Positions 3,491 to 14,320 of a DNA stretch of 64,000 nt are shown piece by piece. The notes under the pieces are model-generated. The model made no database searches. It saw nothing but the letters and a program-made list of their open reading frames with translations, and had not been told where the DNA came from. Each line of letters begins with the position of its first letter. Position 1 is the first letter of the stretch. Both the position numbers and the translations under genes were made by a program. The DNA comes from an uncultured Planctomycetota bacterium (lineage in GTDB: Bacteria > Planctomycetota > Planctomycetia > Isosphaerales > Isosphaeraceae), in NCBI GenBank assembly GCA_963845755.1, contig CAWJTV010000042.1, positions 192,001-256,000 of the forward strand, given 5' to 3'.

Positions 3491-3520
3491 GCAGGTTCGT
3501 GGTCGTCGAACGCGTCTCGG

Positions 3521-5762
3521 TCATTGTCCCGGCAAGATGAGCTTGGATCGCTCCTGTCCCGGGTCGGACGCGGCCTCGGAGCCGGGCGTCCAGATCGTCG
3601 AGCCGCCTCGTGCGGCCTCGGGAGTCCAGAGTCCGCCCGCCGCGGGGGCGGCGCCGAGGTCTCCGGCGGCGGTGGTGACCCGCGGGCCGTACTCGGTCAA
3701 CAAGTGGTCGAGGATCCGCGTGTCCAGAACAATCTTGTCGGGTTGTTTCGGGTCGGGCACGACGCTCACTAGACCGAACTCGGCGAGTCGGAGCAGCACC
3801 GCGGAGAGGGCTTCGCGGTTGCCGCGATAGCGTTGGAGGATGGCTGCGAGGACGGGGACCCAGACCTCCGGATCGTCGAAGACGAACTGGACCTGGAGGT
3901 CGATCAGCTCCCAGAGCAGCGCGCGTTGGGCGAGATCTTATGCGACGGCTCGGACTCGCGACCGCGGCGGATCCAACCCTGGGCCTCGGCTCGGTCGCCC
4001 CGCCGGGCCGCATCGTGTGCCAGGTCGCCGTAGAGGGTCGTCAGCGGGATTCGGCTCTTCATGGGGAGGGAGGGTCGCTGAGCGATCGCGCGACCGGCCC
4101 CATTCATCACCGTGCGCATACCCCAGACTCGGGACAAATAGTAGAGGTGCAGCAGCCCCTCGTCGTCGAGCTCCGCAGTCGGGATCAGCGACCAGCGCGA
4201 CATGTGGACCCGATCGAGGTCCAGGCCCTGGACCGCCACAGCCGGTTCGGGTTTGACCCCCAGCCGCGCGCGGAACTGGCTCCAGTCGAGCAGCTCGGAG
4301 GAATCCTCCTCGGACGTTTCCAGGAGACGAACCGCGGCGCGGAGTGCTGTCTCGGAATCGCCGGCCTTGGCCGCCTGAAGGGGCGTCCGGCCGCGGAGTG
4401 CCGGATGGGCGCCTGCGGCCAGATCTCGCTGATGATGTGCGATTTCTGATCGCGGGTGATCCGCTCGACGTCGTCCTCCGGGAGGCCCGTGGGCAATCTC
4501 CACTGCCAGCTCATGGCCAGGAGATGCCGCGAGACTTTCTCGATGATCTTGGTCCGGGGATGGGCCGGGGGGATGTTCGCCCGCGCCGCGGCCGTGAACC
4601 GATCGCTGAGCCGGTCGAGCCGGCCGTCGTCGTAGGTCTCCAGCACGACGGTGTCCCGGCCGACGATCACGTCGCCTTCGACCGTCGGGATGTCCCGTCG
4701 GGTGAGCCCCGGCCGCGCCTCGATCCGGGGCCGGTCGAGCAGGTGGAACCGCTCGGTCGGCGCGGCCTCGGGATCGCTGGGATCCAGGGGCCGATTCGGT
4801 CCGGCTTCGAAGGCCGGGTCGGCCCGGAGGGCCTCCAGCAGCCCTTCCCGGTTGCGGATCGCCCAGCTCAAGCGAACGAACTCTACGGGATCGGCGATCG
4901 TGCTGGGACCGATCCGCTGGCAAAGGGCCTCGAGGTCGACCGCCTCGACGGTCGGCCCCGTCTTCGTGATGAAGCGGCGCAGGGCCGCGACGGCGGCGGC
5001 ATTGTCGGCGATCCACAGGCAGCAGATGCCGCGATTCCGCTCGGCGATCGCGCCGGCCGACGAGGCGGCGGCCAGCAGCTCGAACGCCGACGCCGCCGAC
5101 GCCCAGAGGCCCTCGTCCGCCCAGCCCATCGCCCGCTCGAACGACTCGCGGAACGCGTCGGTCACCCCCTCAGGCGGCGGCCAGACATCATAGGCGTTCT
5201 TCTCCCAGACGGAGAACCCCGCGTTCGTTCGCAGAGCCTGGATCACCCGCGCGGTCGAATCGTCGATGGTGCCGCCCCACTGCTGCGTCAGCTCCAGGTG
5301 CCGGAAGCCGGCGATCGGCAACCCGGACCGACACAGCGTGATGCCCAGCATGGTGGCCATCGGCGCCAGTTGACGCCGCTTCTCCGGCGCCATGGCCGAG
5401 ATCCCTTGCTGAAACTGGGCGACGGCCGCCACGATGCCCTCGGTCTCCAGCACCAGCCGCGTCATCAGGATCGTCCCGCCCAGGTGGCCGGGGTCCTTCT
5501 TGAGCAGGGCCTGCAGGCTCTGCTTGGCCGGCTCCGCCCGCTCGAGCTGGATCTCGATCAGGGCTTTGCGCGTCAGCAGCCAGGGATTGTCGGGGAACTT
5601 GGCCAGACCCTCGCCCAGGGGTTTCAGTGCCGACTCATGCTGGCCGCTCTCCACCATCCGCTGCGCGCGCTCGGCGTAGGATTCGACCTTCTGGCAGCAA
5701 AATTTGAACTTCTCACCACTCCCGCACGGGCAGGACGCATAGGGGTTAACCGACGCCATCAT
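3521..5762 (-). CDS. SEC-C motif/TPR-containing protein, split by two frameshifts (~4408, ~3920)
   Basis: N-terminal CPCGSGEKFKFCC and TPR-like helices. The reading continues across frames: IWPQAP|HPALRGRTPLQAA...KISPNA|LLWELIDLQVQF...KLILPGQ*. Confidence 0.8.
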
Positions 5763-6043
5763 CAGCCTCTCTCATCGAAAAAATCGCGCCAGGGACGGGG
5801 ATCCGGCAAGGGGCGTCGAGGGACATCCTCGACCACCGGCCACCCCGCCCGAGTCCGTATCACCGAGGATCGCGGAGCAAGCGGGGGCGTCCGACATCCT
5901 TGACGATGCAAGAGCCCGCGCACGCCTTCTCTCTTGATGGTATCCTGTGTCGGGGCCGATGGGGAGTCCCGTTCGGCACGGGTTGCCGCCCGGAGGCTCC
6001 CGAGTTTGGAAGCACGGACGATTCGTCGAGGAGAGAAGCCGTC

Positions 6044-6946
6044 ATGATCGCGAACGACGGACGGGGCCAAACCCCCGAGATTCGACGCCCTATCCCGCGG
6101 CATCGGGGATCGCGGATCCCGGCCGGGCGGCGGTGTCTCCGCGCCGGGGTCGTCTGGCTGGCGGTCCTCGCCCTGATCGGGGGCTCCCCGCGACCGGCCC
6201 GAGCCTGGGGACGGCTGGGTCATCGGGCATCGGCCCGGCTCGCCGAGTCGCGCCTCTCGCCCCGCGCGCGGGCGATCATCCAGGAGCTGCTCGAGCCGGA
6301 TGAATCGCTGGCCGATGCCTCAACCTGGGCCGACGAGCACAGCCGCGAGATCCCCGGCAGCGCCTCGTGGCACTACGTCAACGTGCCGATCGCGTCCGCC
6401 CGATATGACCCCGGCGACTGCAGGGGTCGACGATGCGTCGTCGCCAAGATCGCGGAATTCCGGGAGATCCTCGCCGATCGTCGTGCCCCCCGCGCCCGTC
6501 GGCGCCAGGCCCTGCGATTCTTCGTCCACCTGGTCCAGGACCTGCACCAGCCGATGCACGTCGCCGACCGGGGCGACCGCGGCGGCAACAGCCTCCAGCT
6601 CCGGTCCGGCCGCTACGAGAACACCAACCTGCACCAGCTCTGGGATTCCGGGCTGCTGCGGTCGCGCTATCGCGCGCGCGACGAGCCCGAGCTGGTCGCC
6701 GACCTGAAGGTGCTGGCCGATCGGCCCGAATCGCGCGGCTGGGCGCACGGAGGGCTCGAAGACTGGGCCGATGAGAGCCTCGCACTGGGCCGCCGTGCCT
6801 ATCGCGTCCCGGGTACCGATCGGACCCTGCGCAACGGCGACGAGATCGGCCGCGCCTACGAAGAGGCCAATCTCCCGGCGGCCCTCGATCGTCTCGCCCA
6901 GTCGGGCGTCCGGCTCGCCACACTGCTCAACGAGATCCTCCATTGA
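6044..6946 (+). CDS. S1/P1 nuclease, secreted
   Basis: Signal peptide then WGRLGH, WADE, WHYVN, HLVQDLHQPMH, DRGGN, NLHQLWD. Confidence 0.95.
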   Translation: MIANDGRGQTPEIRRPIPRHRGSRIPAGRRCLRAGVVWLAVLALIGGSPRPARAWGRLGHRASARLAESRLSPRARAIIQELLEPDESLADASTWADEHSREIPGSASWHYVNVPIASARYDPGDCRGRRCVVAKIAEFREILADRRAPRARRRQALRFFVHLVQDLHQPMHVADRGDRGGNSLQLRSGRYENTNLHQLWDSGLLRSRYRARDEPELVADLKVLADRPESRGWAHGGLEDWADESLALGRRAYRVPGTDRTLRNGDEIGRAYEEANLPAALDRLAQSGVRLATLLNEILH

Positions 6947-7022
6947 GACGGATGGACCTGGGCGACGGCCGAGAGATCCGAAGCCGAGGGTCCAGCCAGC
7001 AGGATTCCCCGACCGAAGCTCA

Positions 7023-7217
7023 TCACGACGCCTTCGGTTTCTTCCGTGAGGAGCCTTTCGGCTTGGCCGACTTCTCCAGTTTCCCCTTCGTGGGACCCGA
7101 CTCCCCGGCCTGGTCTTCCGGCTGCTCCGACTCCTCGACACCATGTTCGAGAGGGCGCTCGCCAAAAATCTTGTCGAAGTTCGGGAAACCGTAGCGGCGT
7201 ACAATAGGTCCACTCAT
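7023..7217 (-). CDS. Small protein MSGPIVRRYGFPNFDKIFGERPLEHG... (64 aa, acidic middle, Lys-rich tail)
   Basis: ATG with AGGAAA upstream. Its N-terminal 14 codons recur at 8713-8754 with mostly synonymous changes, indicating selection on this peptide. Confidence 0.65.
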   Translation of the reverse strand: MSGPIVRRYGFPNFDKIFGERPLEHGVEESEQPEDQAGESGPTKGKLEKSAKPKGSSRKKPKAS

Positions 7218-7242
7218 GATCATATTTCCTATTGGCAGAACC

Positions 7243-7965
7243 TCAGGTCGATTGTGCTTCTGGCTCAGGGTCGTCGGGCTCTAGATCCAAGACCTCCTGA
7301 TAAGGTCGGGGATCTTCACCGCCGGCCGGTAGTGGGCCCTCCGCCCGGCACAGCCCTCTTGTAAGCTGGTAGAGATCAAAATCATATCTCTTGCAAATGC
7401 CCCACCAGTCGCGGAAGATGAACGCACTCAGGGAGCGGTTCACACCGCAACACGCCTCGACGGGTGCTCTTCCGAGACAATCGTCGAGTTCCTCCATGCA
7501 GGCAATCTTGGGCAGATCGAAAAACCGGAAGCAATCGAACTTGCCCTTGTAATAATTACGATTGCCGTGCTCCTTAAAGAGCCGTTGGTTCTGAAAAATC
7601 CTCCCCCGATTCTCCCCTCTCCATTCCCATCTGCGGACTTCTGAATCCACCATCTGGAAGAAATGTGGATCGACTATCGCTAAGTCGAGATCCGATGAGG
7701 GACCGTATTCCATCCAGACCTTCGCCGCCTTCGGTGCAATGCTGAATCCGATCTTCGTGCTCCCCTTGAAAAAAAGGCAGTTCGGATGGATGCCTATACA
7801 ATCGGAAATATGGTGCAGCAAATCATGATGCAAGGAATGGGTTTGGATGGCGCGGGGGGTCCCTGGAATCAGGATCGAGTTGATAAGCTTATTCTTGTCT
7901 GTGAGGGCTAGTTCATGGACCTCTCTGGGACTAACGATGATGTGCCCTTGGGCATCGAAATGCAC
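7243..7965 (-). CDS. Putative pol-beta superfamily nucleotidyltransferase
   Basis: FFKGSTKIGFS...SSDLDLAIVD (GS...DxD). GTG start at 7965 with GGAGG 9 nt upstream, just after the stop of the upstream gene. Confidence 0.65.
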   Translation of the reverse strand: MHFDAQGHIIVSPREVHELALTDKNKLINSILIPGTPRAIQTHSLHHDLLHHISDCIGIHPNCLFFKGSTKIGFSIAPKAAKVWMEYGPSSDLDLAIVDPHFFQMVDSEVRRWEWRGENRGRIFQNQRLFKEHGNRNYYKGKFDCFRFFDLPKIACMEELDDCLGRAPVEACCGVNRSLSAFIFRDWWGICKRYDFDLYQLTRGLCRAEGPLPAGGEDPRPYQEVLDLEPDDPEPEAQST

Positions 7966-7969
7966 GGGA

Positions 7970-8494
7970 TCAACCCTCCGCACGCTCGACGACAACCAAC
8001 GGCTGATTGTAATGCCCCTTCGAGTCAAAAAGCGGATCGGTCATCCGGAGACGTACTCGACGATCACATACTGGGCATCTGAACATATCGCCGCTCATAG
8101 GAATGTAGTCTTGCCGGGCGATCTCTTGGTGGCAATAAGGACAGGCCGAGATATCTCTGAATCTGCAAGTCGGACAGATAGTGGGCAATACCGGCCCTGC
8201 GATATGTCCACAGTTGGTGCACTCTGGTCCCGAACCTTCCGTCACGATCGACACACCAGCCCGAGGAGCATACCCGAAGGCGTCGATGACCTTCTGAACT
8301 TCATCGGGGTAATTTGTGGCGAACTCAAAATACGCATTGCGATCCGAATCTCTGTGTGTCCCGTGTGTAGGACTGTCAGGGACAATCTCGACGGGCGAGC
8401 GGGCCCAAAGGTCGCGCCGCACTCGCGCGGCGATGCGTAGATCATCGGCAGAATCGGTGGGGTTGTGCTTGATGGTGATTCGGACTTTTGTCAT
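7970..8494 (-). CDS. Zinc-ribbon protein with four CxxC motifs
   Basis: CTNC, CPTC, CPYC, CPVC after an ~85-aa alpha/beta N-terminal region, GGAG RBS. Confidence 0.75.
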   Translation of the reverse strand: MTKVRITIKHNPTDSADDLRIAARVRRDLWARSPVEIVPDSPTHGTHRDSDRNAYFEFATNYPDEVQKVIDAFGYAPRAGVSIVTEGSGPECTNCGHIAGPVLPTICPTCRFRDISACPYCHQEIARQDYIPMSGDMFRCPVCDRRVRLRMTDPLFDSKGHYNQPLVVVERAEG

Positions 8495-8529
8495 GGCGGT
8501 CTCCGGAGCATGGCGAGATCCATGATTCG

Positions 8530-8535
8530 ATTATA
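8530..8535 (-). promoter_or_regulatory. Perfect -10 box (TATAAT) upstream of the island operon
   Basis: + strand ATTATA ~35 nt upstream of ATG 8494, no clear -35. Confidence 0.4.
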
Positions 8536-8682
8536 ACGACTCTGATCGGGCCAACAGAAGGCGCCTCGGAACCCGATCAATCTGGGTCCGACCCGGAGCA
8601 GTGCCGAATCCGAAATCGCTCATACGATGGACGTCGGGCAAGGGCGAGGGGCGCTTCTGGTAAACCCCTTCTGGGTTTCAGG

Positions 8683-8754
8683 TTAAGAATTCGGGGCAGT
8701 TCTTGGATTTTGAAAGTTCGGGAAACCATACTTACGAACGATCGGACCTGACAA
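8683..8754 (-). pseudogene. Truncated original 5' end of the small gene (MSGPIVRKYGFPNF+QNPRTAPNS*)
   Basis: GGAGG-6nt-TTG start, 14 codons nearly identical in protein to those at 7217, diverging right after the repeat core. Confidence 0.55.
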
Positions 8755-9002
8755 TTCGCACCTCCGTTTCCGAGAGATCCGGGCAATCAACAACTGGCCA
8801 AGCGGATTCGATGAATCACGCAAGGTTCGCCGGAGAGTCGGAATCGAACTCGTCGTGCACCGGTTCTCGGCGTCCCTCCTCTGTGGTCTTGCCTCGTTCA
8901 TGATAAACGAAAGGCTGAGCGTCGGGCGACTGGTGCGAAGAACCAGTTGGCGCGGTATCCTTGAGAGATGACGGACATTCACCAACTTCGGGGGCATCCC
9001 CA

Positions 9003-9299
9003 ATGAAAGGCAAGGATACGGGAGAGTCGGGTGGGCGTGAGTCATCCGGGATGCTCGGTTGGGCGTTCAGCGTCTTTGGATACGTCACTTTCGCCGCATT
9101 CGTGTGGTTCGCCGCATGTGTGTGTATCTTGCCCGTCTTTGCGGTGATGAAGTTCGTGGAATCCCTGGGGAATGCCTTCGATGGTCTCTCGTGGGGGTTC
9201 CTCGGGATTGTCTGGTCGATCAGGATCATGCTCTCCTACGCGTGGAACGAGTTCGAATGGCTGCTGCTCGAGCTTCTGGGCTGGCTCCTGTTCGGCTGA
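9003..9299 (+). CDS. Small hydrophobic membrane protein
   Basis: 2-3 hydrophobic stretches. Confidence 0.5.
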   Translation: MKGKDTGESGGRESSGMLGWAFSVFGYVTFAAFVWFAACVCILPVFAVMKFVESLGNAFDGLSWGFLGIVWSIRIMLSYAWNEFEWLLLELLGWLLFG

Positions 9300-9491
9300 C
9301 TCCTGCGAAACGCCAGGAGAGACGAGCCCTCGGGCCGAGCCGTCTTGACGGGTCACTCTTCGGTCGATGCAAGATCGGGCCGATCGTGGACGCGGGGAAG
9401 TCGCAGTGCAGCCGGCGGGGCCGCAACCACGGATCTCTCGGTGAGCCGGATCGCGGCCTTGGCCGGGGGTCGGTCGCAGGGGAGCAGACGC

Positions 9492-10445
9492 ATGGCGAAA
9501 CTCGGCTATGAAGACAGCTTGACCGGAAACATGATCGGCAAGGGTGAGGCAACCACGCAACTCAAGGACATCGTCAAGGCGCTGCCGCTCCGGGTCCTCT
9601 CGGAGGCCGACTGGCACCACTGGACGACCCGGGGTTACGTGATCGTCAAGGATGCTGTGCCGCCGGAGAACCTGCGCCGATCGGTCGAACTCCTCTGGGA
9701 GTTCCAGGAGATGGATCCGAACGATCCGTTGACCTGGTTCAAGCCTCAGCTCCGCGAGAACGAGATGAAGGAGCTCAATAATAGCGGCATGGTGGAGATC
9801 TACAATCACCAGTACCTCTGGGATAATCGACAGGCTCCGCGCGTCTATGACGCGTTCGTCAACATCTGGGATCGCGAGGATCTCTGGGTCAAGATCGATC
9901 GCGCGAACCTCAACCCGCCGAACCGGGGGATCCGCCAGTTCTCGGGATTCATCCACTGCGATGTCGATACCTCGCTGGTCCCGATGCCGGTGAATGTTCA
10001 GGGCGTCTTGTCGCTGGTGGATACCGATCCCGATATGGGCGGATTCCAGTGTGTCCCCGAGCTGTTCCGGACGCTCGAGGACTGGATCCCGACGCAGCCC
10101 GCGGATCGAGATCCCTGGGCGCCCGACCCGGCCGGATTCGAGATCGTCGATGTCTCCACCCGGGCGGGCGACTTGTTGATCTTCAACAGCCTGCTGCCTC
10201 ACGGCATCCGCCCCAACCGATCTCCGGACCGTGTGCGCATCGCTCAATACATCGCCATGCGGCCGGCCGAGGAAGCGAACGGGGAGCTCCGCGAATGGCG
10301 CATCCGCTCGTGGCGCGACCGCGAGCCACCCCAGGGCTACGCGTTCCCGGGCGATCCGCGCAACTGGGAGAAGACGCGATACCCACGCGCCCAGCTGACG
10401 ACGCTCGGCGAGAAGCTGCTCGGCTCCCGGGGCTGGGCCGAATGA
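9492..10445 (+). CDS. Phytanoyl-CoA dioxygenase (PhyH) family Fe/2OG enzyme
   Basis: GYVIVKDAV, HxD (IHCD), GDLLIFNSLLPHG, RIAQY. Confidence 0.9.
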   Translation: MAKLGYEDSLTGNMIGKGEATTQLKDIVKALPLRVLSEADWHHWTTRGYVIVKDAVPPENLRRSVELLWEFQEMDPNDPLTWFKPQLRENEMKELNNSGMVEIYNHQYLWDNRQAPRVYDAFVNIWDREDLWVKIDRANLNPPNRGIRQFSGFIHCDVDTSLVPMPVNVQGVLSLVDTDPDMGGFQCVPELFRTLEDWIPTQPADRDPWAPDPAGFEIVDVSTRAGDLLIFNSLLPHGIRPNRSPDRVRIAQYIAMRPAEEANGELREWRIRSWRDREPPQGYAFPGDPRNWEKTRYPRAQLTTLGEKLLGSRGWAE

Positions 10446-10452
10446 GGCCGAC

Positions 10453-10743
10453 TCAGGTGCGCGTTCCGGCCGAATCCATCGGCGATCGTTCCCCGTACTT
10501 CAGGCCGGACAACGCCACTGCGAAGACGACGACCGAGCCAACGATCAAGCCGGCGATGAGTCCCTGGGTGATGCCGAGTCCCACGCCGACCTGGACGGGG
10601 TCGAACTCGGGCCCGTGGCCCGCGAAGACCGCGCGATAATATCCGGGCATGACCTGACCCAGGGTCGATCCGATCAAACCTCCGGCGATCGCGAAACCGA
10701 ACGCACTGGCGATGATGATCGTGAAGCCCCGCGTGACGGTCAT
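10453..10743 (-). CDS. Small 2-TM membrane protein
   Basis: Gly-rich hydrophobic helices flanking PGYYRAVF. Confidence 0.65.
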   Translation of the reverse strand: MTVTRGFTIIIASAFGFAIAGGLIGSTLGQVMPGYYRAVFAGHGPEFDPVQVGVGLGITQGLIAGLIVGSVVVFAVALSGLKYGERSPMDSAGTRT

Positions 10744-10817
10744 GACATGACTCCGTCGAGCGTTTCCCAACGGCCCGTCAGCCTGAAATCGCCGAGGAGC
10801 CGCTTCTCTCGGGTCGC

Positions 10818-11101
10818 CTACGCTTCGTTCTCCAGGTGCTGCCGGATTCGCGCGGCGAGCGATTCGGTCATCGGCAACAGTCCCTCGGGGTCGTCCGCAT
10901 GGAGCGCGGTGAGCCGGCCGTCCAGGAACCGGAGCAGGTCGCGGACGACCTCAACGTTACCCAGCCGAAGTTGATACCGGGCGAAGGATTCGGCGCAGGT
11001 ACCCCGGCCGCTCGGGCCGCAAGCTTTCCCATAGAGGATCTGTCCCTTGCGAGCGAGCTGGCGCGACGCTCCGGCGATCGCTCCGAGTCCGTGCGATTCA
11101 T
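10818..11101 (-). CDS. Hypothetical protein, probably frameshifted near its 5' end
   Basis: Protein-like frame LARKGQILYGKACG...AESFARYQLRLGNVEVVRDLLRFLD...QHLENEA* lacks its own start, and ATG 11101 is in an adjacent frame. Confidence 0.35.
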
Positions 11102-11108
11102 GACCGAC

Positions 11109-11612
11109 TCACGACTCGTCCGAGGAGGGGCCGATCACGTCGCCGAAGAACTCCTCGTCGCTGGCCCCGTCTTCGGCATCGACCTTCTCGATCGTCGCCT
11201 GGATCTCCTCGGGGGTGCAGATCCCCTTAACGGTTAGCAGGCGATAGAGGGTCGCGATATGGAGCCTGAGCCCGTAGATTTGACGCTCGAGATCGTCGAT
11301 CTCGTCCGAGTCAACATCGTTCTCATCGGCCATGGTCGTATTTCCCTTTTCTGAAAACATCGAAGCTCGCCACCGCCGCATCAATCGGCGTTTCTCGACC
11401 GTCTGGAGGATCCTCGCGGCGCGCTCGGCGTCAGCCGCAGGCACCTGGAGCCGGATCCAGCCCAGGGCAGTGCCGAGGAGCCAGTTCATGTCGACGATCT
11501 CGGCATCGGCCAGGAACGCCGGGATCCCCTCCGCTTCGAGGCGCAACCGGGCCGCTTCCGCGGCGGTGCGAAACGGGTATTGCGCAACGGTCACAGGCTC
11601 GCTCTCGGTCAT
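11109..11612 (-). CDS. DUF2007-like putative signal-transducing domain plus small acidic C-terminal unit (possibly a separate gene from 11333)
   Basis: AEAARLRLEAEGIPAFLAD...IRLQVPAADAERAARIL, and internal ATG 11333 with AAGGGA upstream. Confidence 0.7.
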   Translation of the reverse strand: MTESEPVTVAQYPFRTAAEAARLRLEAEGIPAFLADAEIVDMNWLLGTALGWIRLQVPAADAERAARILQTVEKRRLMRRWRASMFSEKGNTTMADENDVDSDEIDDLERQIYGLRLHIATLYRLLTVKGICTPEEIQATIEKVDAEDGASDEEFFGDVIGPSSDES

Positions 11613-11750
11613 GAGAGTCCCTCCCGCGCTCCCGGCCCCAGCGACCCAGTTCGCTGGGCCGGTGTGCCGAACATCAGCAAAGATTGTACCAGGTTCTCCG
11701 TGGTGAGGAGTTCATCCGACTCCGCACTTCCGCCGAACGCGGCATCGTGC

Positions 11751-12053
11751 TCAGCTCTCGACCCGGACGCACCGACCGAAAATCGCCCCTGCCGAGATCC
11801 AGCCATTGATCCGGCCCCGGTTGTTGCCGATCTGGAACCGCTCTCCCTGGATCGCCTTGATCAGGTGCAGGTACTCGCGGCCGTTCACCTTGCACAGCAC
11901 GATGTCGCCCACACGGAGCGAAGCGGCTTCCACCGGCTCGAGCGTGCAGAGCTGCCCCGACTCGATCTTGCCCGACATCGAGTGGCCCCTCGGGCGGAAC
12001 GAGACGGTCTCGCCGCTCCGGAGCTTCTCGAGATACGCCGACGCCCAGCCCAT
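11751..12053 (-). CDS. Small S24/S26-like peptidase domain protein
   Basis: PRGHSM, VGDIVLC, YLHLIKA, IGNN. Confidence 0.7.
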   Translation of the reverse strand: MGWASAYLEKLRSGETVSFRPRGHSMSGKIESGQLCTLEPVEAASLRVGDIVLCKVNGREYLHLIKAIQGERFQIGNNRGRINGWISAGAIFGRCVRVES

Positions 12054-12101
12054 TGCGTACAACTGCCTCTCGCGATCGGGTTCGTTGCAGCGGCGAACCG
12101 G

Positions 12102-12518
12102 TCAGGAGCGGAACCACGGCTCAACGCCCTCCGGGCTCGACTCCAGGCGCGATCGGATCCTGTCCAGGACCTGGGCCGTTGCCCGCGTGTTCTCCTCCAG
12201 GTGGATCATCAGCCGACAAAGCGTGCCCAGAGCGATCATTTGTAGCCCGGAAACCAGCAATGCCACCGACCAGACGAATGCGACGGTCACGGGCACCCAG
12301 GGAACCATCGGCAGCACGTTGACCGGGGGACCCCCGAACGGACCCACGTCTCGCGGGGGCGCGGCCGACGTGCCCCAGGCAAGGGCGTAAAGACTGACGG
12401 CCAGGAGAAAGGCACCGCCTGCCATCAGCACCGTTCCGATCAGGCCGAAGAGGAGCCCGATCACCCGCAGGGATCGATAACGTTCGTCCGATCGTTGGAA
12501 TGACTGGATCTTTTTCAT
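12102..12518 (-). CDS. 2-TM membrane protein
   Basis: RYRSLRVI + TM...TM + LMIHLEENTR. Confidence 0.75.
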   Translation of the reverse strand: MKKIQSFQRSDERYRSLRVIGLLFGLIGTVLMAGGAFLLAVSLYALAWGTSAAPPRDVGPFGGPPVNVLPMVPWVPVTVAFVWSVALLVSGLQMIALGTLCRLMIHLEENTRATAQVLDRIRSRLESSPEGVEPWFRS

Positions 12519-12593
12519 GGTCCTGGCTCAACGCGAGAACGGATGTCGATCACACCACAGATCGAATCGCAATGTCGGCACCGGCCGCCGATG

Positions 12594-12872
12594 TTATTCA
12601 TCGTCCTCTTCGCCGTCCCATGGCATCTGGGGCAAGGCGTGAAGCCCCGCGATATAACGGGCCTCGTTATAGACCTCGTTCTTCTTGAGGATGTCGAAGA
12701 CTTCCGAGGTGACCACGCAGGCGATTAGCTCCACGGCCCGCTCTCGGGAATAGCCTTCGGCCATGAGCCTGGCCAGCGTCTCGGCGGTCTCGGGCGGTGA
12801 CTCGTCGCGAAGCTGGTTCTCCACGATCTCCAAGAGGACACGACGCAGCCGCGGGTTGACAGTCTGACCCAT
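12594..12872 (-). CDS. Conserved hypothetical helical protein
   Basis: EIVENQLRD..PPET..TLARL..EGYSRERA..LIA motif, GAGG RBS. Confidence 0.75.
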   Translation of the reverse strand: MGQTVNPRLRRVLLEIVENQLRDESPPETAETLARLMAEGYSRERAVELIACVVTSEVFDILKKNEVYNEARYIAGLHALPQMPWDGEEDDE

Positions 12873-13114
12873 GAGACACCTCGCGATGGTTGCACCGGCC
12901 GTTTTCCAGCCGTTCCGCCGGAAGTGATTGCTCGGCGGTCCGATCCGCCGGACCTCCCTCTCGATCCTAACATAATCCCGAGGGGTGGACAGTCTCCTCG
13001 CCACTTCCGGGCTGAGCGACTTGGGTCATTCTACCGGGAACGGCCCGAACTACTGCACCGATGCGGTCTCCGTGACAGTCGTCTTGACGCGCATTTGCTT
13101 CTCCGGCGAGATCT

Positions 13115-14174: not shown

Positions 14175-14230
14175 GTTTCAAGACGGGGACAGGCACCTCG
14201 AAGACACGGAGCCAGTCCCCCTTTTGAAAC
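14175..14230. repeat. REP-like palindrome, family A (GGGGAC(A/T)GGC...GCCAGTCCCC)
   Basis: Imperfect inverted repeat, homologous to 23625-23692 and 55615-55665. Confidence 0.8.
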
Positions 14231-14320
14231 AGCGTGTCAGTGGAATCTCTGCGCGGTGCGCGCATCATCGGGAATTTTGAATCAGCAATCCCTCTTGGGT
14301 TGCGGCTCCGCCGCGTCAGG

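Follow-up and report, generated by a model that had tools for sequence, protein, structure and literature searches.

The window analyzed here is a stretch of 64,000 nucleotides from an uncultured Planctomycetota bacterium of the Isosphaeraceae (contig CAWJTV010000042.1, positions 192,001 to 256,000), whose genome we call G000. It contains a small gene on the minus strand, pep64, which codes for 64 amino acids (7023-7217), and an insert of two genes at the start of pep64, which we call cassette A. The 14-mer AAGTTCGGGAAACC, or GGTTTCCCGAACTT on the minus strand, is present at 8714-8727 (copy 1) and at 7177-7190 (copy 2), with a spacing of 1537 bp. Both copies lie in start-proximal open reading frames (ORFs) of the minus strand, as described in the initial annotation of this DNA. 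When one mismatch is allowed, exactly two occurrences are detected in the whole window, 0.04 being expected, and none of 100 shuffled sequences gave two.

In both ORFs the 14-mer corresponds to codons 10-14. The upstream copy has the sequence TTG TCA GGT CCG ATC GTT CGT AAG TAT GGT TTC CCG AAC TTT. It is preceded by GGAGG and codes for MSGPIVRKYGFPNF, followed by nine unrelated codons and a TAA stop, in an ORF of 23 amino acids (8754..8683). The downstream copy has the sequence ATG AGT GGA CCT ATT GTA CGC CGC TAC GGT TTC CCG AAC TTC, codes for MSGPIVRRYGFPNF and continues as pep64 (7217..7023, or 66 amino acids if counted from the ATG at 7223). The nine codons located 5' of this core all differ in DNA between the two copies, and the only difference in protein is a lysine or an arginine at one position. 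The initial annotation had pointed out this pattern, which we confirm.

Two tightly packed ORFs of the minus strand are found between the copies: zn174 (7970-8494, 174 amino acids) and p240 (7243-7965, 240 amino acids, GTG start). Neither protein matches an integrase or recombinase family in the family libraries, which bears out the earlier remark that no integrase lies between the repeats. Terminal inverted repeats and transposase genes are also absent from cassette A. The GC content is 0.51-0.58 over the insert and 0.65-0.73 in the flanks. The extent first given for the element is correct for the repeat pair and the insert; the stretch of low GC continues upstream beyond it, to about 9300.

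The insert may be read as a succession of pieces along the minus strand. The upstream ORF (8683..8754) appears to be the leftover old 5' end of pep64 (attL-type): a TTG behind GGAGG, codons 1-14 of the RK type described below, nine codons apparently derived from the cassette and a stop. The left end of cassette A (8495..8713) opens with the junction motif TTTCAAAATCCAAGAAC, which is common to other cassette types in our alignments. By eye, a putative hairpin (GAAACCC-AGAA-GGGTTT) may be recognized within this left end, together with a conserved, putative TATAAT-like box (8535-8530) located 5' of the first cassette gene; the promoter scan called neither of them. After zn174 and p240 comes the replacement start of pep64 which the cassette would carry (7191..7223), with ATG ATC ATG followed by codons 1-9 of the RR type. 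The junction, or crossover, is placed in copy 2 of the core, and the pep64 body (7023..7176, codons 15-64 and stop) would be derived from the host. This body and the neighbouring genes are colinear at 84% with G001, a genome of the same genus. The body is also 79% identical to the gene of G105, a genome of another genus, and does not match the G105 cassette.

The gene pep64 is conserved in the family. A first search found its product in 35 of 36 family genomes, and a degenerate DNA pattern for its codons 3-12 is found in 112 of 121 family genomes, nearly always in a single copy; the reversed control pattern has no match in these 121 genomes. The check for homologs of the peptide, suggested in the initial annotation, thus came out in its favour. 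A convergent S1/P1 nuclease gene (5900..6946, plus strand; PF02265, E 5e-54), which marks the host side in the window, is also the next gene after pep64 in G001, G032, G035 and G105.

Two types of pep64 start may be distinguished. Most family genomes have the RK type, with the protein sequence MSGPIVRKYGFPNF and codons like GGTCCGATCGTCCGCAAGTAC, and a minority have the RR type, with the protein sequence MSGPIVRRYGFPNF and GGACCCATTGT.CGCCGCTA. as codons. The upstream remnant in the window is of the native RK type, its main departures from a typical RK start being in codons 1 and 2. The working start belongs to the RR type, as carried by cassettes. A recognizable cassette gene is located directly upstream of 14 of the 18 RR genes and of 7 of the 40 RK genes, counts that are only descriptive, as relatives are not independent and several loci were chosen for being RR. 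These 58 distinct loci are 57 working genes, leaving out the remnant in the window, plus that of G006. The arginines of the RR type are coded by CGN, which is never a single-step neighbour of AAG or AAA, and the RR state flips within four genera (g17, g60, g68 and g74). Replacement of the start fits these two features better than point mutation.

The protein p240 is found in 15 of the 121 family genomes, and zn174 adjoins it at almost all of these loci. A search of 400 further genomes of the phylum did not find it, and plasmid and phage collections contain no match to it. In three genera, represented by G000, G006 and G105, the zn174-p240 pair is flanked by copies of the pep64 start, at the same codon. 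The homology between G000 and G105 covers 8729..7179, from core to core, with 80.5% nucleotide identity, and upstream of the left start copies the DNA of the three genomes is unrelated. The cores which flank the cassette are identical over 14 nt in G000 and over 12 nt in G105, where both contain an unusual TTA codon.

The cassette is more similar among these genomes than the host genes are. When compared with G000, cassette A proteins are 78-80% identical in G105 and 75-79% in G006, whereas the corresponding values for the proteins of host neighbours are 55-63% and 42-43%. In G001, of the same genus, host proteins are 67-91% identical to those of G000 and cassette A is absent. Cassette similarity is therefore flat across hosts of very different divergence, which is what transfer predicts. 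The closest relatives in metagenomes (P0001-P0009) have p240 proteins with 74-93% identity. Taking p240 and zn174 together (P0001-P0009 and P0121-P0131), the identities are 74-94%, on contigs of up to 163 kb which may contain further junctions.

In G105 the intact cassette A sits 11.5 kb from the real pep64. The right end of this cassette reads ATG TCT GGT CCC ATT GTG CGC CGC TAC GGT TTA CCG AAC, and then non-gene sequence follows. A relic of another p240 C-terminus (41% identity over 49 amino acids, E 1e-4) lies ahead of the real pep64. The two cassette A right ends present in this genome are only 77% identical to each other, and from these sequences the locus would contain two cassette A ends of different lineages.

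Cassette A is not the only cargo. The initial annotation had suggested looking for other cargo at the same site, and we have found three cassette types (A, B/B' and C) at one codon. Cassette B, with the genes B1 (111 amino acids) and B2 (173 amino acids), lies between start copies in G071 and G103, and a remnant is present in G069. B1 and B2 have no Pfam match, and our searches gave no cross-matches of either to zn174 or p240. The GC content of cassette B is 0.57-0.58, compared with 0.63-0.73 in its flanks. B2 ends 2-14 nt ahead of the pep64 ATG in G069, G084, G099, G100, G102 and G103, among others. Among the 16 best B2 matches in the family (at least 61% identity), 12 end within 20 nt of a pep64 start, one at 1.1 kb and three elsewhere. 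A diverged B2-like gene, 27-33% identical to B2, is located upstream of pep64 in G001, G015, G098, G104, G101, G002 and G014. Cassette C, found in G078, is a unit of 455 bp with a single ORF of 74 amino acids (C1). Extra start copies are present in G071 (two, plus one with a mismatch), G103 (two), G078, G101 and G069 (the remnant), and target repeats are found at both cassette ends in all five of these genomes, as well as in G006 and G105.

Two genomes contain arrays. In G105 the order is cassette B (with an insertion sequence in B1), start 1, cassette A, start 2, 11.5 kb of other DNA, the p240 relic, and start 3 with the gene; cassette B ends a few bases ahead of start 1. In G071 there are three starts, with cassette B and a unit of 290 nt. 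Starts 1 and 2 of G105 and start 2 of G071 are intact copies located at cassette right ends, unattached to any gene. It follows that the replacement start belongs to the cassette, as had been proposed for the element in the window.

All cassette types also share their junction. The match to pep64 stops at codons 12-14 and is followed by a related left-end motif: besides the TTTCAAAATCCAAGAAC of type A in G000, we find TCTCAGAATCCAAGAAC in G105 (type A), TATCAAAGTCGAGGAAC in G078 (type C), CGATAGAATCCAGGAAT in G101 (type B') and CGACGGAGTCGAAGATC in G103 (type B). In the intact gene, the junction may be the centre of a putative imperfect palindrome of 17 nt, TTCCCGAA-C-TTCGAGAA, which we have read by eye.

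Empty sites have been found in one genus, g17. Two of its genomes without a cassette, G072 and G068, can be aligned with G071 along the upstream host gene (81-82%) and then directly at the pep64 start, and G071 has 1383 bp extra between the upstream block and the gene. Downstream host genes also align with G071 in those genomes where this was checked (G068, G061, G017 and G070). G069 presents the simple form, with remnant, cassette B and gene, and its remnant keeps the native ribosome-binding site context AGGAGTTCCT, as in the empty sites. The empty-site allele which the initial annotation had suggested looking for therefore exists for cassette B, G072 and G068 being empty and G071 and G069 occupied, with an old start left over.

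We consider it probable that gene-restoring cassettes repeatedly use the first 12-14 codons of pep64 as an attachment site, where they are integrated site-specifically by an enzyme which acts in trans. According to this proposal, small cassettes of low GC (0.5-1.5 kb), devoid of an integrase, would insert at the pep64 start. Each would end with its own ribosome-binding site, a start codon and pep64 codons 1-13, so that after insertion the gene body would be read from the cassette-borne start and the old start would be left upstream as a short dead-end ORF. The window would contain one cassette of type A, with pep64 as the last gene behind it. Integration and excision would take place by site-specific recombination at the core (...TTCCCGAAC|TTCGAG...), as suggested by the single point at which all cassettes break off, by the left-end motif which they have in common and by the identical cores in G000 and G105. 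The gene of the enzyme would be located at another place in the genome: cassettes A, B and C have the junction in common but not a single protein, and any enzyme must then act in trans. The initial idea that the repeats are attL and attR of an element which targets a small gene is supported, mostly by evidence from relatives.

We have searched for such an enzyme. The tyrosine recombinase family PF00589 has no match on contig C42 of G000, which includes the window, nor near pep64 in G010, G105, G001, G062 and G071. The whole G000 genome holds 43 matches to PF00589 and 37 to PF00239. The nearest PF00239 match corresponds to a multi-copy gene about 13 kb from pep64. This gene codes for a large serine recombinase (G000:C42:185862-186305, some 6 kb ahead of the window, with open frames of 353-541 amino acids). 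It has five copies with near-identical scores, one each in contigs C42, C20 and C13 and two in C11, which are not specific to the site and are probably part of a repeated mobile element.

Several observations weigh against the proposal of site-specific integration. No recombinase is found in or beside any cassette. Four soil runs, which belong to one study and gave few contigs of 151-260 nt, contain no circle, empty-site read or joint; one contig of run X3 carries the pep64 of another relative, whose start is of the native RK type. No clean empty site for cassette A is found in genus g1, the genus of the window: G001 lacks cassette A, yet it contains a B2-like gene and a 27-kb rearrangement, and its colinearity with G000 ends at the pep64 start codon. 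The identity of the cores is not universal, as the upstream copy in G006 differs inside the core, and several B cassettes (G099, G100 and G102) have no upstream remnant. Less similar zn174-p240 pairs, with 35-67% identity at 10 genome loci and 4 metagenome loci, do not adjoin pep64, and no flanking repeats were found around 11 of the more distant loci. The four metagenome loci come from a scan with p240, are all distant pairs (p240 38-54% identical) and have no pep64 start nearby. Finally, the cassette and the neighbouring nuclease gene have much the same nucleotide identity between G000 and G105 (80.5% and 80.2%), so that the case for transfer rests on the protein identities and on G006.

Among the alternatives, the one which survives best has the same anatomy and no dedicated recombinase. 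Cassettes would be moved by RecA-dependent homologous recombination, through the 40-65 nt start repeat or through flanking homology, either by a Campbell-type single crossover of a circle or by allelic replacement after uptake of foreign DNA. We consider it unlikely, even if it agrees with the failure to find a recombinase nearby. The start copies in G103 and G071 are nearly identical, as gene conversion would give. The import of a larger donor fragment would also fit the DNA upstream of the remnant, since 7218-9479 has a low GC over its whole length and is foreign to G001 as well as to the other family genomes. The orphan segment located there (8755..9479) has no counterpart in G001 or other family genomes, and a search for counterparts of 8728-9480 in 120 family genomes gave only matches of chance size. 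It includes an orphan ORF of 112 amino acids with hydrophobic stretches (8961-9299, plus strand), which matched only itself in a search of 5.8 billion proteins. We looked for a relic of a cassette right end upstream of the remnant and found none, and there is no match to B2 or B2' in that place. On the other hand, 27-42 nt of diverged homology are a very poor substrate for RecA. In addition, three unrelated cassette types stop at codons 12-14 and share a left-end motif, which would not be expected if homology arms had been captured independently.

Ancient insertion followed by vertical inheritance, with decay or loss in most lineages and no mobility at present, appears quite improbable. The equal nucleotide identities of the cassette and the flanking host gene in G000 and G105 would be expected, many cassettes are decayed (G067, G065, the G105 relic and G078), and the reads gave no signal of excision. 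Nevertheless, cassette proteins keep an identity of 75-80% in divergent hosts whose own proteins have 42-63%. Occupied and empty alleles coexist in one genus, and cassette types differ within genera g17 and g68. The two right ends in G105 which are only 77% alike, and the low GC kept in hosts of high GC, also argue against vertical inheritance.

The upstream short ORF could also be seen as a leader peptide or regulatory upstream ORF of a three-gene operon (leader, zn174, p240 and pep64) instead of an insertion scar. It keeps a ribosome-binding site and a usable TTG start in the window, and its tail, QNPRTA(P/R)N, has been kept in both G000 and G105. However, this conservation is no higher than the 80% identity found all along the cassette. 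In G078 and G101 the copy has lost its start, in G069 it is shortened and in G099, G100 and G102 it is missing, and the same structure flanks unrelated cargos. We therefore find this explanation very improbable. A transposon insertion with a 14-bp target-site duplication located by chance in the gene would account for the exact direct repeat at the ends, but it is hardly credible, as the repeat continues for 27 nt as a diverged coding copy only on the side which restores the reading frame, the cassette has neither transposase nor terminal inverted repeats, and the site recurs with different cargos.

The functions of the cargo proteins can only be suggested. No match above the cut-off is found in Pfam, NCBIfam, PADLOC or PHROGs for p240, zn174, B1, B2, C1 or pep64 itself. 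There are 126 homologs of p240, a protein whose predicted fold has a pLDDT of 93.5. A motif G-S...D-x-D is conserved: in 52 sequences G68, K71, D92, D94, D99 and D107 are invariant, and S69 nearly so. Foldseek gave no match at E <= 0.001, its top rows all being Pol-beta-type nucleotidyltransferases, and in a wide structural search minimal nucleotidyltransferases came first, with weak Z scores of 4.9 (HI0073) and 4.1. One feature-neighbour cluster has PF01909 in 11% of its members. From its predicted structure, p240 may be a Pol-beta-type nucleotidyltransferase, and we call it nucleotidyltransferase-like.

The protein zn174 is predicted to have a ferredoxin-like N-terminal domain and a C-terminal double zinc ribbon with eight invariant cysteines (pLDDT 86). 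Its matches to zinc-ribbon families are all below the cut-off, its fold has no match at E <= 0.001, and its homologs (at least 200) have generic names or none. For B2, one feature-neighbour cluster has PF05168 (HEPN) in 40% of its members, which is only a lead. The A and B cargos are probably toxin-antitoxin or defence-type pairs which help cassettes persist. They resemble the HEPN/MNT toxin-antitoxin systems in being tight two-gene units, and p240 weakly matches minimal nucleotidyltransferases. Nevertheless, the partner of p240 is a zinc-ribbon protein and not HEPN, and no family model matches either protein.

Some other features of these genomes should also be mentioned. In G073 and G062, about 720 nt and 1.1 kb of DNA of no recognized type are located between a conserved upstream block, or B2, and an RR-type pep64 start; they may be further cassette types. 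G010 has a start-less copy similar to pep64, ERGPIVRRHGFPTRS... (G010:C3:1171692-1171720, minus strand), which is inverted and 27 kb from the real gene (C3:1144842), and may have been left behind when DNA between two att copies was inverted. In G001, a palindrome-rich element of about 300 bp (G001:C4:500271-500568) lies between the B2-like gene and pep64, and copies which are 80-83% identical are found on G000 contigs C9, C20, C11 and C17.

The comparison of the window with G001 shows a rearrangement. Positions 3513-7217 are colinear with G001:C4, 14387-16119 is inverted on the other side of the block, and the counterpart of 9480-12896 lies 27 kb away in G001. The intervening 27 kb match contig C11 of G000 (961-980 kb), and one breakpoint is exactly the pep64 start codon. 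A stretch of 5.4 kb (G001:C4:509505-514910 and G000:C8:9046-14446) is 96% identical in both genomes, in surrounding orthologous DNA with 82-88%, which suggests a recently exchanged stretch or a mobile element. Positions 14175-14235 of the window contain an element of about 40 nt with dozens of copies, 88-98% identical, scattered on both strands of G001 and G006. It resembles a short repeat present throughout the family, similar to repetitive extragenic palindromes or miniature inverted-repeat transposable elements (REP/MITE).

Gene-restoring integration is textbook knowledge for large elements which carry their own integrase. For example, SXT/R391 is described as inserting into the 5' end of a conserved gene, prfC, with near-identical attP and attB (PMC2791158). 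The cassettes we have found also insert in the 5' end of a conserved gene, have target repeats at both ends and carry a replacement end. On the other hand, SXT has about 100 kb and its own tyrosine integrase Int plus Xis, while these cassettes have 0.5-1.5 kb and no integrase, contain unrelated cargo types and target a gene of 64 amino acids in Planctomycetota.

Cis-mobilizable elements (CIMEs), described for streptococcal elements, keep attL and attR and lack integration and transfer genes, and newcomers which integrate into an att site holding a gene end give tandem arrays, as described in the same source (PMC5704250). Att sites are also kept here without integration and transfer genes, and the arrays in G105 and G071 look like those described in that source. 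The difference is that CIMEs are decayed integrative and conjugative or mobilizable elements, with a related integrase-bearing element at the same site, whereas PF00589 has no match near pep64 in the six genomes checked, and the cassettes look like compact, intact two-gene units. In the tycheposons of Prochlorococcus, as presented in a preprint, successive integrations at one site leave partial target copies between elements, and older remnants are pushed inwards (bioRxiv 10.1101/2020.12.28.424599). Arrays of elements separated by partial copies of the target gene are thus a common feature with those described there. Nevertheless, the target of tycheposons is the end of a tRNA gene, and the screen described in the preprint was one of integrase-carrying elements; our cassettes target the start of a protein-coding micro-gene and carry no integrase. 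Judging by their titles, we found no description of a system like ours in the literature on mobile elements of Gemmataceae or Planctomycetes.

Integron cassettes are small units with one or two genes and no recombinase, arrayed at one site by an external enzyme, and toxin-antitoxin cargo is common in them. Here too we find recombinase-less units arrayed at one site: B, A and an A relic in G105, and B with the 290-nt unit in G071. The differences are the following: PF00589, the family of intI, has no match on the G000 contig C42 or in the vicinity of the arrays of G105 and G071, these cassettes appear to bring their own upstream region, and the recombination site would be part of a coding sequence which each cassette rebuilds.

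What distinguishes these cassettes is the combination of minimal units without an integrase, unrelated cargos at one junction with one left-end motif, arrays, and the start of a micro-gene as target. The target gene, of only 64 amino acids, would probably be missed by standard annotation. The site is a defined landing pad in the large genomes of planctomycetes, for which genetic tools are scarce, and looking upstream of pep64 is a way to harvest unknown cargo pairs. These genomes contain dozens of orphan recombinases, and our results raise the question of which one acts at the site; if it is found, the site of 40-60 bp could become an integration tool. As a tentative suggestion, doubtful at present, we may think of an integron-like system whose attachment site lies within the first 14 codons of a conserved micro-gene. 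An unrecognized recombinase acting in trans would shuffle unrelated pairs, similar to toxin-antitoxin or defence systems and lacking a recombinase, in and out of the site, and each of them would rebuild the start and put the host gene at the end of the cassette operon. If this is true, an imprecise deletion of the cassette would deprive the host of a conserved gene, and cassettes would be retained by gene capture.

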